Of a stretch of 64,000 nucleotides of DNA, positions 9,700-22,072 are shown piece by piece (the stretch's first letter is position 1; each line of letters opens with the position of its first letter). Both the position numbers and the translations under genes were made by a program. Source of the DNA: an uncultured delta proteobacterium (GTDB lineage Bacteria; Myxococcota; Myxococcia; Myxococcales; Myxococcaceae); contig CAVYSY010000031.1 of NCBI GenBank assembly GCA_963771175.1, positions 1 through 64,000 of the forward strand. The letters run 5' to 3'. The notes below the pieces were generated by a model. That model searched no databases, was not told where the DNA came from, and was given only the letters and a program-made list of their open reading frames with translations.

Positions 9700-12600
9700 A
9701 TGGAAGCCATCGCCGTGGTGGGATTGGGTTGCGTCCTGCCCAATGCCCTTCGCGTTTCCGACTTCTGGGCCAGCATCTCCGCTGGCAAGGTGTCCCTCTC
9801 GAAAGTTCCCGCCCAGGCCTGGAACCACGCGATCCACTTCCACCCCGACCGGTCCGTGGCGGACAAGACCCACTGCGACCTCGGCGGCTTCATCACCGAT
9901 TTCGTCTTCGACTGGCGCAAGTACAAGGTGCCGCCGTCCGACGCGCAACAGGTCAACCCGCTGCAGTGGATGATCCTCGAGGCGGGCACCCAGGCCCTCT
10001 CCGAGGTGCGCAACATCCCCAAGGACTCCACGTCCATCATCCTCGGCGCCACGGGGCTCGGCTGGCAGCGCGACAGCGGGATGCGGATCCGCCTGGAGGA
10101 CATGCTGGACGCGGTGCGCGCCACCGACGAGTTCCGCGCCCTGCCGACCTCCCGGCAGCAGGAGCTGCTGGACGCCACCGCCGCGCGCCTGCGCGAGCAC
10201 CTCAAGGAAGTCAGCGAGGACAACGTGGTGGGCGCCTCGGCCAGCGTGGCCTGCGGGCGCATCAACATGCACTTCGACATCAAGGGGCTGCACTACTCGG
10301 TGGATGCGGGCTTCGCGTCCTCCCTGGCGGCCCTGGACCTCGCGGTGCGCGGGCTGCGCGACGGCGAGTTCGACCTGGCCGTCACCGGCGGCGTGAGCGA
10401 GATGCTGACCCCGTTGGAGATGGTCGCCTTCTCCAAGATGGGGGACTCTCCGGACAGGGAAGCGTGCTGCCCTTCTCCGAGCGGGCGGATGGAACCCTGC
10501 TGGGCGAGGGCGTGGCGATGTTCGCCCTCAAGCGCCTCTCGGACGCGGAGCGGGATGGGGACACCATCTACGCGCTGGTGCGCGGCGTGGGCGGCTCGTC
10601 GGATGGCCGGGGCAAGTCGCTGGTGGCGCCCCGCAGCGAAGGCCAGGCGATGGCCATGCGCCGCGCGCTCGAGGACGCGGGCGTGGAGCCGGGCTCGGTG
10701 CAGTACGTGGAGTGCCATGCCACGGGCACCCAGGTGGGTGACGCCAGCGAGGTGCGGGCCCTGGCCAGCGTGTACACGGGCGCTCAGGCCGGCTCCATCG
10801 CGCTCGGTTCGGTGAAGGCCAACATCGGTCACCTGCGCGCGGGCGCGGGTGCGGCGGGGCTCCTCAAGGCGGTGCTCTCGCTGCACCACGGGCAGATTCC
10901 CCCTCAGCCCGGCGTGGACAAGGTCAACCCGAAGCTGGAGATGGAGCGCACGCCCTTCTTCGTCCCCCAGAAGGCGCAGCCGTACCGCCCGGGCAGCGTG
11001 CCCCGCGCGTCCGTCACCTCCTTCAGCTTCGGCGGCAACAACTTCCACGCGGTGCTGGAGGCGTACCGCCCGACCGAGCCCCGCAAGCTCCCCGTCGCGA
11101 AGCCCCGCCGTCAGGACGAGCCGCTGGCCATCATCGGCATGGGCGGCATGTTCCCCGGCGCCTCCAACGTGAAGGACTACTGGAAGCGGCTGCTCGAGGG
11201 CTACGACGCCACCCGCGAGATTCCCAAGGAGCGCTGGGACATCGAGCGGTATTACGACCCGGCTCGCAAGGACAAGGCCTACACGAAGCTGGGCTGCTTC
11301 CTGGACGAGTTCCCCAAGCCGAGCCTGGAGATGCGGATTCCTCCCACGGCCTGGCCGTCGTTGGATCCCTCGCATGTGCTGATGCTGTGGTGCGCGGACG
11401 AGGCGCTCCAGGACGCGGGCTTCGCGCCGGACAAGTGGAACCGCGACCGGGTGGGCATGTCCTTCGCCTTCCTGCCCTACCAGGGGAAGAAGTTCCTCGC
11501 CGACACGCGCGTCCACTGGTCCGAGTTCGCCCACGAGCTGCGCACGACGCTGGAGAAGTCCGGGCTCCCCGCGGGCGAGCGCGAGGCCATCCTCCGCAAC
11601 GCGGAGGAGCGCTACAAGAAGGACCTGCCGCCCATCAGCGAGGACAGCCTCACCGGCTTCCTGGGCAGCCTCACCGCCGGGCGCATCGCCAACCTCTACG
11701 ACTTCCACGGCCCCGCACCTGGTGACGGACGCGGCCTGCGCCAGCGCCCACGCCGCGCTCCACGCCGCCTGGAAGATGCTGCAGCACCGCGAGGTCGACG
11801 TCGCCCTCAGCGGCGGCGTGTGGTGCGACATGCTGCCCGAGTTCTTCATCGCGGCCTGCCGCTTCAACGCGCTGTCCGCGAAGCACAGCGCCCCCTTCTC
11901 CGCGCAGGCGGACGGCTTCCTCGCCGGCGAGGGCGCGGGCGTCCTCGTGCTCAAGCGCCTCTCCGACGCGGAGCGCGACGGGGACCGCATCCACGCCGTC
12001 ATCCGCTCCGTGGCTGGCGCCAGCGATGGCAAGGGCCGCTCGGTGCTCGCCCCCAGCGAGGAGGGCGAGGCCACGGCGATGAGGCGTGCGCTGGCCGCCG
12101 CCAACATCCCCGCCTCGAGCGTGGACCTGGTGGAGTGCCACGGCACCGGCACCGCGCTGGGCGACGTGACGGAGGCCAAGGCCACCTACGCCGCCTATAA
12201 CGAGGGCCGCGTGCGCCCCATCCTCATCGGCTCGGTGAAGTCGAACATCGGCCACCTCAACGCCGCGGCCGGCACCGCCGGCATGATGAAGGTCACCCTC
12301 GCGCTGAAGAACGCCTTCATCCCCAAGTCGCTCAAGAGCGAGCCGCGCAACCCGAAGATTCCCGCGGGCGTCGAGGTGGCGGACACCCACCGCGAGTGGC
12401 CCTACCCGGCCGACGGTGGACCGCGGCGCGCGGGCGTCAGCGCCTTCGGCGTCGGTGGCGCCAACTTCCACGCCATCCTCGAGGAGTACCGGCCCGCGAC
12501 CACGCGTCCGGAGCCCAAGGTGAAGAAGGACGACGCCTCGTCCGAGGGTGGTGAGCCCCGGCTGATCGCCGTGGCCGGCGCGGACGCGCGCGCCTGTGTG

Positions 12601-21377: not shown

Positions 21378-22072
21378 GCCCGCCCCCGTTCCGGCCCGAC
21401 CGGGTACTGCTGCCCAGCGGGCGCGAGGTGGCGCTCGGCTGGTGCGAGGTGGGGTGGGAGCCGGCCTCCGCGCTCACGCCCGGGGAGCGCGAGGGGCTGA
21501 CCCGGTGCAGGACCGCCAAGCGCCGCGAGGAGTTCGTGGCGGGCCGGGTGGCGGCGCACCGGGCCCTGGCGCTGCTGGCTCCAGAGCTTCGAGCGGAGGT
21601 CTCGGCGCGTACCGAGGGACAGGACTCCGGGCGGCCCTTCTTCGTGGGCGCGCCGGGGATAGCCCTGTCCATTTCCCACTCCGCCGGGCTGGCGGTGGCG
21701 GCCGTCGCGTACGGCGAGCCACTCGGCGTGGACCTGGAGTACCCGGTGGAGGTGGGCGCCGCCTTCCAGGAGGAGGCCTTCGCCCCGGGTGAGCTGGAAG
21801 GCTATCGCGCCCCGTGCGCGGGCCGGATGGAGCCGCTCACCGCCGCCTGGGCCATGAAGGAAGCGGTGCTGAAGGTCTGGGGCGTGGGGCTGCGCGCGCC
21901 CCTGCAGCAGGTGGCGGTCCGGCCCGTGGAGCTGGACACCTCCGGCGCGAGCGTCTCCTTGCGGCTGTCCCTCGAGACCGGGACACTGCCTCCCGGCCTG
22001 GGGCCTCCCCCCACGGTGCTGTCCGCGCTCCTGGTGTGGGAGGCCACCCAGGTGCTGGCGGTCGCGGGCTGA
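21374..22072 (+). CDS. 4'-phosphopantetheinyl transferase (Sfp-like superfamily)
   Basis: ATGA overlap with PKS2; RREEFVAGR, GRP, SISHS, LGVDLE, WAMKEAVLK. Confidence 0.9.
   Translation: MSPPPFRPDRVLLPSGREVALGWCEVGWEPASALTPGEREGLTRCRTAKRREEFVAGRVAAHRALALLAPELRAEVSARTEGQDSGRPFFVGAPGIALSISHSAGLAVAAVAYGEPLGVDLEYPVEVGAAFQEEAFAPGELEGYRAPCAGRMEPLTAAWAMKEAVLKVWGVGLRAPLQQVAVRPVELDTSGASVSLRLSLETGTLPPGLGPPPTVLSALLVWEATQVLAVAG

Follow-up and report, generated by a model that had tools for sequence, protein, structure and literature searches.

The genome of an uncultured delta proteobacterium of the family Myxococcaceae (assembly GCA_963771175.1) contains an operon of four genes that resembles iterative polyketide synthases (PKSs) and polyunsaturated fatty acid (PUFA) synthases. 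The stretch analysed comprises positions 1 to 64,000 of contig CAVYSY010000031.1, and is referred to here as the window. The listing of open reading frames (ORFs) and their translations place all four genes on the same strand (+) at 9700-22072, giving an operon of 12.4 kb. Pfam matches, together with a structure model for gene 2, indicate that it encodes, in order, a KS0-KS-AT-ACP-ACP synthase, a protein with a dehydratase (DH) fold, a KS0-KS-KR-DH synthase, and an Sfp-type phosphopantetheinyl transferase (PPTase). KS denotes a ketosynthase domain and KS0 one that lacks the active-site Cys, AT is an acyltransferase, ACP an acyl carrier protein, and KR a ketoreductase. The synthase subunits are the products of genes 1 and 3, each of approximately 1790 amino acids, and the DH-fold protein and the PPTase are separate polypeptides. 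The features are listed below with the basis of each assignment.

9700-15060, + strand: gene 1, KS0-KS-AT-ACP-ACP synthase (Pfam on three frame pieces; 1786 codons with both single-base indels read through)
9700-11090, + strand: gene 1 KS0, Phe for Cys, His/Lys/His kept (alignment of 47 KS domains; clade support 98)
10440-10444, + strand: frameshift 1, a G run one base short (frame change; one-base gap against G006 and G004; extra G in 4/4 runs)
11103-12513, + strand: gene 1 active KS, Cys/His/Lys/His (KS alignment)
11711-11714, + strand: frameshift 2, a C run one base too long (frame change; orthologue gap; base absent in the contigs of three runs)
12835-13785, + strand: gene 1 AT with GQSAGE and SHGYHS motifs (Pfam Acyl_transf_1, 118.7 bits)
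14128-14766, + strand: gene 1 tandem ACPs, two, each with DLGIDTVKQ (Pfam PP-binding, two stretches)
15064-16008, + strand: gene 2, stand-alone double-hotdog protein of PKS-DH fold without the catalytic His, 314 aa (AlphaFold2 and Foldseek)
16005-21377, + strand: gene 3, KS0-KS-KR-DH synthase, 1790 aa (Pfam KS, KS, KR, PKS_DH_N and PS-DH)
16005-17360, + strand: gene 3 KS0, Cys/His/Lys/His all replaced, by Thr/Gln/Ala/Phe (KS alignment; clade support 100)
17370-18794, + strand: gene 3 active KS (C668, H803, K837 and H842 invariant in 30 homologues)
19572-20414, + strand: gene 3 KR (Pfam KR, 90.8 bits; Lys/Ser/Tyr/Asn columns at least 90% conserved)
20496-21368, + strand: gene 3 DH with His...Pro and Asp...Gln motifs (Pfam PKS_DH_N and PS-DH; motif columns at least 90% conserved in 30 homologues)
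21374-22072, + strand: gene 4, Sfp-type PPTase, 232 aa (Pfam 4PPT_N and ACPS)

The genes are tightly packed. The TAG stop codon of gene 1 (15058-15060) is followed after a 3 bp gap by the GTG start codon of gene 2 at 15064, and ATGA overlaps join gene 2 to gene 3 (16005-16008) and gene 3 to gene 4 (21374-21377). These junctions are as described in an initial annotation made from the sequence alone, and its domain architecture is likewise recovered by Pfam. The same annotation proposed that the functions of a PfaA-like protein are divided between two chains. Consistent with this, residues 971-1779 of the gene 3 product align to the KR-DH part of PfaA-like frames of 2600-2900 amino acids. Its claim that an enoyl reductase (ER) and a thioesterase (TE) are absent also holds: no ER, FabA-type DH, or TE family matched in the six operon pieces, and in a whole-genome search neither PF03060 (ER) nor PF00975 (TE) matched anywhere on contig C31, which carries the operon. 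No NCBIfam model reached its cut-off on the synthases. The best was TIGR02813 (PfaA), scoring 908.6 bits with the gene 1 orthologue of the same-genus genome G006 and 440.9 bits with gene 3, under a cut-off of 1010.1. The AT motifs GQSAGE and SHGYHS are identical in all five genomes compared.

Each synthase begins with a Cys-less KS followed by an intact KS. The residues at the Cys/His/Lys/His positions were read from an alignment of 47 KS domains cut from 27 proteins, which represent the operon in five genomes, three metagenomic homologues, a sister cluster (described below) in two genomes, six PfaA-like proteins, and two modular KS domains of the same genome. The alignment excludes one locus that yielded no KS, copies truncated at the end of a fetched stretch, and weak internal FabF-like matches of three PfaA-like proteins. 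The second KS of both gene 1 and gene 3 carries Cys/His/Lys/His, and in gene 3 these residues (C668, H803, K837 and H842) are invariant in 30 homologues; the same homologues conserve, at 90% or more, the Lys, Ser, Tyr and Asn columns of the KR as well as the His..Pro and Asp..Gln columns of the DH. The two KS0 domains are degenerate to different degrees. In gene 1, the pattern is Phe/His/Lys/His in five of five genomes, so that the pseudo-KS proposed there lacks the Cys as claimed and is not fully dead, both His and the Lys being kept. In gene 3, all four residues are lost, the replacements across genomes being Thr, Pro, Gly, Ser and others for the Cys, Gln, Thr or Arg for the first His, Ala, Val or Cys for the Lys, and Phe, Tyr or Asp for the second His. 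Neither KS0 has Gln at the Cys position, the residue that marks type II chain length factors (CLFs) and KSQ decarboxylases; Phe stands there in gene 1 and Thr, Pro, Gly or Ser in gene 3.

The KS phylogeny proposed in the initial annotation was inferred by quick maximum likelihood (LG+G4), with supports from the SH-aLRT branch test only. Each of the four KS classes of the operon forms one clade (support 97-100), and these clades are old and separate. Next to the PfaA-like genes in genomes G034 and G027 lie unrelated genes, for a peptidase-like giant protein and an acetyl-CoA carboxylase, and the tree holds no true PfaC. The structure 6riw serves as the reference for PfaC, and the control genomes of the family search include no PUFA producer. 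Among the examined Myxococcota loci, all 15 tandem-KS proteins, spanning two cluster families, have the KS0 first. Thus, the pseudo-KS-first order stands for both synthases and does not stand as a trait unique to them. In P0048 and P0045, two planctomycete-type PfaA-like proteins of approximately 3000 amino acids, the order is reversed, an active KS preceding a degenerate KS/CLF ahead of the AT; P0048 is named by NCBI from Pirellula.

An AlphaFold2 model of residues 1-931 of the gene 3 product, built with 30 homologues, had a mean predicted local distance difference test score (pLDDT) of 91 and a predicted template modelling score (pTM) of 0.93. Its best and only whole-length Foldseek match was 6riw, the PfaC KS-CLF (template modelling (TM) scores of 0.78/0.79 over 974 columns); the remaining good matches span one KS each. 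Aligned by sequence with the gene 1 orthologue, 6riw is likewise colinear with the two KS domains. Because of these two matches to 6riw, each synthase most likely starts with an intramolecular KS/CLF-like pseudo-dimer whose inactive half is N-terminal. A catalytic KS is joined to a Cys-less partner, as in KS/CLF-type pseudo-heterodimers, and the two are predicted to pack as a dimer. The two intramolecular pseudo-KS/KS pairs of the initial annotation are therefore supported by the predicted PfaC KS-CLF-like fold and by the 6riw alignment.

The carrier domains are unusual in a different way. The PP-binding domain of gene 1 scores 41.9 bits against a cut-off of 20.8, and both ACPs contain the motif DLGIDTVKQ, in which Thr replaces the Ser that normally bears phosphopantetheine. 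Rather than the Ser of a canonical DSL-type motif, Thr is found in 10 of 10 ACPs from five genomes, and it aligns to the Ser of both ACPs of PigH, the only solved relative. The substitution also occurs outside the operon: of 85 PfaA-like proteins from the database search (P0036-P0120), 64 match the carrier motif, 44 with Thr only (DLG[IV]DTVKQ) and 20 with Ser only (DSIK type). A literature search found no description of a Thr carrier site in PUFA-like synthases. Two proteins of the Thr type, P0077 and P0084, have a fused PPTase domain. In the operon itself, gene 4 has the domains and motifs of an Sfp-type PPTase, with 4PPT_N at 41.0 bits (cut-off 27), ACPS at 39.4 bits (cut-off 25), and the motifs GVDL and WAMKEAVLK. 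On either side of the ACPs, gene 1 also encodes helical segments (approximately 13820-14000 and 14890-15057; residues approximately 1375-1435 and 1730-1786), which, by eye, resemble degenerate docking or carrier domains that lack the Asp-Ser/Thr motif.

Gene 2 was recognised by structure rather than by family matching. Its only Pfam match is PS-DH at 16.4 bits, below the cut-off of 23.7. The AlphaFold2 model is a double hotdog (pLDDT 84.5, pTM 0.87) whose top Foldseek matches are PKS DH domains (query TM score 0.70, E 3e-15). It has the fold of a PKS dehydratase without the catalytic His of the HxxxGxxxxP motif. Across 20 aligned homologues no His is invariant or near-invariant, and the invariant residues are W223, W304 and F307; the protein of the window has one His in total, at the second-motif position. 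A profile search of 1.84 billion representatives returned 47 relatives at E <=0.001, 16 of them at E <=1e-30 and 249-316 amino acids long, and an ESM Atlas feature search again retrieved stand-alone PS-DH proteins. A metagenome scan with the profile yielded five loci and no new gene neighbourhood. In genome G044, gene 1 ends in a gene 2-like domain (hhalign probability 93.5%). P0141 has the fused architecture KS-KS-AT-ACP-DH, and there are also shorter fragments reading ACP-DH. Because the catalytic His is missing and the domain is found fused to the end of gene 1, gene 2 appears to encode an integral post-ACP module that would be incapable of canonical dehydration. The natural fusions also suggest that its product binds the gene 1 product.

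Gene 1 is interrupted in the assembled sequence. Its reading frame passes from 1 to 0 and back to 1, switching in the G run at 10440-10444 (-1) and in the C run at 11711-11714 (+1). Each break corresponds to a single-base gap relative to the orthologues of two complete same-genus genomes, G006 and G004, and the gene is uninterrupted in G006, G019, G023 and G044. Logan contigs of four public runs (X1, X2, X4 and X20) were compared with the window over 4000-22100. An extra G after 10439 is present in all four, with a supporting depth equal to the total depth (34.2 in X1, 31.5 in X20, 9.92 in X2 and 3 in X4), and one base at 11715 is omitted in the contigs of X1, X20 and X2. Over 9468-14184 the X20 contig has 37 differing letters and exactly two gaps. 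Damage of the same kind occurs nearby, with ten more indels between 5045 and 9123 in the run contigs relative to the window. In the phosphoenolpyruvate carboxykinase (PEPCK) gene at 4032-5834, only 106 of the 357 C-terminal domain positions still match, and the gene for a periplasmic binding protein is split (6786-7556 / 6886-8184); both are whole in G006. Because similar indels affect neighbouring genes, and because the orthologues and run contigs lack the breaks, both frameshifts of gene 1 most likely arose as errors of the assembly.

The two frameshifts could alternatively be taken at face value, with gene 1 a true pseudogene in this strain and the operon decaying. This seems highly improbable. 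Both indels lie in homopolymers and compensate each other, and a good KS is still read in the shifted frame between them. Intact orthologues, the contigs of three to four runs without the indels, and the breaks in neighbouring housekeeping genes all point away from decay, as does an assembly completeness of only 81.7% for 58 contigs. Furthermore, dN/dS is below 0.6 throughout, ranging in pairwise comparison with G006 from 0.19 to 0.58 in 13 of 13 segments, among them the two KS0 domains and gene 2. These comparisons point the opposite way to the decay that the initial annotation named as a refutation, and biologically the operon does not call for the indel correction proposed there. The same caution is needed for other frameshifts in this assembly, which should not be taken as gene decay.

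The operon is conserved well beyond this genome. Gene 3 was found in all 17 other same-genus genomes, as one uninterrupted frame in 15 and split over contig ends in two, at 79-86% identity, the G011 copy, in three contig fragments, reaching 97-98%. Four further genomes, each from a different genus of the family, also carry it (80% identity in G024, 56% in G023, 55% in G019, and pieces of 49-60% in G020), and the remaining 19 genomes of the search gave generic KS-level matches or none. Gene 2, used as a marker, was detected in 18 loci from Archangium species, Cystobacter fuscus, Vitiosangium, and metagenome-assembled genomes (MAGs). In the protein database there are 35 near-full-length homologues of the gene 3 type (P0001-P0035), with full-length identities of 35-42%. 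Among them are proteins that NCBI assigns to Anaeromyxobacter dehalogenans 2CP-1 and Anaeromyxobacter sp. K (39-40%) and to a Polyangiaceae MAG (35%), and several of the homologues bear the automatic JGI name 'enediyne polyketide synthase'. The four-gene order is kept in G006, G019 and G023, the fourth ORF of G023 having no Pfam match, and G044 has the same order with gene 2 fused to gene 1. The operon looks self-contained, because the flanking genes (PEPCK, a tetratricopeptide repeat (TPR) protein, a binding protein, a methyl-accepting chemotaxis protein (MCP), and an OPT transporter) vary between genera.

Related designs occur within the same family. An order-level genome search with the gene 3 KS0 domain detected clusters in four other genera of the family at 31-34% identity. 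Two of these sister loci were fetched (L046, 5016-19901; L047, 2091-19900) and found to encode KS0-KS-AT, ACP-KR, AAT-DH, KS0-KS, and further KS pairs, the AAT domain being acyl-CoA:6-APA acyltransferase-like. One of their first KS domains has Tyr/His/Lys/His at the catalytic positions and another is fully degenerate. In the tree, their KS domains interleave with those of the operon. The sister cluster shares with the operon the KS0-first pairs, an AT fused to the first pair, a KR, a PKS-type DH, and the lack of an ER within the stretch examined. It differs in having at least five genes, separate ACP-KR and AAT-DH proteins, and a third KS pair; the 20 kb fetched showed neither a PPTase nor a counterpart of gene 2. 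KS0-first pairs are thus a recurrent design in Myxococcota, and any claim that the operon is unique is therefore tempered.

PUFA synthases are among the closest known systems. PfaA is the best NCBIfam model, the KS-AT-ACPn and KR-DH portions are colinear with PfaA-like proteins, tandem ACPs occur together with a dedicated PPTase, and the fused KS pair is predicted to fold as the PfaC KS-CLF (TM 0.78). The operon differs in splitting the PfaA functions over two proteins with a KS pair on each, in lacking a FabA-type DH, the PfaD ER, and PfaB, and in having Thr for Ser in its ACPs. Its scores lie under the PfaA cut-off, and PF03060 is missing from both the operon pieces and contig C31. Its KS order is also reversed: the inactive half comes first, whereas PMC13291983 and the title of 6riw give PfaC the active KS first and the CLF second.

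Other synthase families share different subsets of these features. Enediyne PKSs (PKSEs) of the SgcE/CalE8 type are single polypeptides with the architecture KS-AT-ACP-KR-DH-PPTase. The operon has the same catalytic set without an ER, for which conjugated polyenes are expected, and its PPTase is likewise encoded with the synthase. It differs in comprising four polypeptides, two KS0-KS pairs, two ACPs, and an extra His-less DH-fold protein. The KS/CLF heterodimers of type II and highly reducing type II polyene PKSs combine a catalytic KS with a Cys-less partner, a KR, and a DH, again without an ER. In the operon, however, the pair is fused in one chain inside type I megasynthases, and Phe or Thr, not Gln, occupies the Cys position. 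Lastly, RedX/PigJ proteins are tandem KS-like proteins in which the Cys-less half is N-terminal. The NCBIfam PigJ model (NF053555) matches both synthases (359.4 and 189.6 bits), and PigH supplies the only solved relative of the ACPs. These scores are far under the PigJ cut-off of 900, and PigJ, which has no AT, ACP, KR or DH, acts on its own in a single condensation. Judged by sequence, the operon thus resembles a cross of PfaA/PfaC and the enediyne PKSE, yet lacks defining features of both.

A literature search found no description of this architecture or of the Anaeromyxobacter homologues, and the name Anaeromyxobacter does not occur in the available text of the survey by Shulse and Allen (PMC3098273). 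The earlier proposal of an undescribed system holds to this extent; it is weakened by the recurrence of the KS0-first design and by the homologues that JGI had automatically named as enediyne PKSs.

Taken as a whole, the evidence probably describes an intact, vertically conserved operon for a heteromeric, iterative type I PKS or fatty acid synthase (FAS)-like enzyme of the PfaA/enediyne-PKSE lineage, which leaves its chain unreduced. That the operon is intact and functional in nature is very likely. In the mechanism proposed here, the PPTase would prime both ACPs, probably on the unusual Thr, and the single AT would load malonyl units. The gene 1 KS pair may start and extend short chains. Because its KS0 keeps the His/Lys/His residues used in decarboxylation, this domain may generate the acetyl primer in the manner of KSQ or CLF domains. 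The gene 3 pair, with its fully degenerate CLF-like partner, would extend longer chains and set their length, and the KR and DH of gene 3 would process every beta-keto group in trans, on chains carried by the gene 1 ACPs. Because an ER is missing, the chain would stay unsaturated, which predicts a hydroxy/enoyl lipid or a conjugated polyene. A structural or chain-handling role after the ACPs may fall to the His-less hotdog protein, which is the only candidate for release in the operon.

Several points weigh against this reading. With Thr at the carrier site, priming might be inefficient or atypical. Known decarboxylases have Gln at the Cys position, and Phe or Tyr there is not known to mark one. 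The roles assigned to the two KS pairs follow by analogy only, and the deep branches of the KS tree are weakly placed (SH-aLRT 84-94). A trans-acting ER, whether a housekeeping enoyl reductase or an NMO-family gene on contig C52, could be recruited, in which case the chain might be reduced. As for the integrity of gene 1, X4 lacks the correction of frameshift 2, its sole contig there having a depth of 2 and starting at 11712. The runs provide contigs of strains 95-99+% similar, possibly including the source sample, rather than the raw reads of this isolate; they show an intact form, but are no proof that the indels are missing from this isolate.

The identity of the product is where the rival explanations diverge. 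The synthase might instead make a saturated or mono-unsaturated (hydroxy) fatty acyl chain, with an ER, and possibly FabA/FabZ, supplied in trans as part of a secondary-lipid or FAS-like system. Presence in 17 of 17 same-genus genomes, and of homologues in small non-fruiting relatives, would suit a core lipid function over a variable secondary metabolite, one strong NMO-family gene lies elsewhere in the genome (C52, 305 bits), and PfaA is the best NCBIfam model. Nevertheless, this alternative appears unlikely, as no ER is linked to the operon at the four loci examined for one (L011, L013, L014 and L045), the PfaA scores fall under the model's cut-off, and no FabA-type DH domain is present.

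It could also be that the system is already known in kind, as a member of a characterised myxobacterial polyene PKS family, for which the dawenol PKS of Stigmatella aurantiaca is the candidate. A cited title mentions a 'highly unusual' polyene PKS in a myxobacterium of the same family, and the sister cluster, whose KS domains intermingle with those of the operon, may itself be a characterised polyene PKS. The link to the dawenol cluster is a guess, however, and the gene set of the sister cluster differs anyway in its AAT domain, its three or more KS pairs, and its separate ACP-KR protein, which makes this explanation distinctly unlikely. Least credible is a split enediyne PKSE making an enediyne core precursor. 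The summed domains (KS, AT, ACP, KR, DH and PPTase) do equal the PKSE set, in line with the JGI naming of homologues. This is outweighed by the division into more than one polypeptide, the two extra KS0 domains, and the second KS. In addition, the variable flanks hold no accessory biosynthetic genes and no adjacent small hotdog thioesterase gene, as judged by Pfam alone without dedicated accessory models.

A bolder version of the preferred reading, offered only tentatively and more doubtful than not, is that the operon represents a distinct and ancient Myxococcota class of heteromeric iterative PKS. In such a class, two reversed CLF-KS pairs would share one AT, KR and DH, a His-less hotdog would replace the thioesterase, and a Thr would be phosphopantetheinylated by the system's own PPTase, yielding a polyene-type lipid central to Archangium and Anaeromyxobacter physiology. 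If this were true, the Thr-type carrier, seen in 44 of the 64 motif-matching PfaA-like proteins, would define a large unrecognised branch of PUFA-synthase-like enzymes.

The proposed arrangement of two fused, CLF-first KS pairs served by one set of processing domains would add an assembly logic to the enzymology of iterative PKSs and PUFA synthases. It would offer a tractable case for the control of chain length and for release without a thioesterase, and it raises a testable question about carrier proteins with Thr in place of Ser. A small, self-contained operon present in every Archangium/Cystobacter-type genome searched lends itself to heterologous expression, and it may make a lipid or pigment conserved among myxobacteria. 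Although unusual in its architecture and its Thr carrier site, the operon is one of many orphan PKS clusters and shares its design with relatives, which moderates its interest.

Some minor observations concern the surroundings of the operon. Scans for promoters and terminators over 8800-9750 and 21900-22400 gave no match, consensus scans of this type fitting a GC-rich organism poorly. Upstream, a long X20 contig skips 661 bases at 8806-9468 and has eight other letters instead. This is an indel polymorphism in the 1.5-kb spacer before gene 1, in which no convincing gene was found. Downstream, the convergent gene at 22105-25848 (- strand) encodes a methyl-accepting chemotaxis signalling domain. 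Its ORF of 1247 amino acids compares with 701 for the counterpart in G006, and the upstream part of this ORF is probably non-coding or affected by indels.

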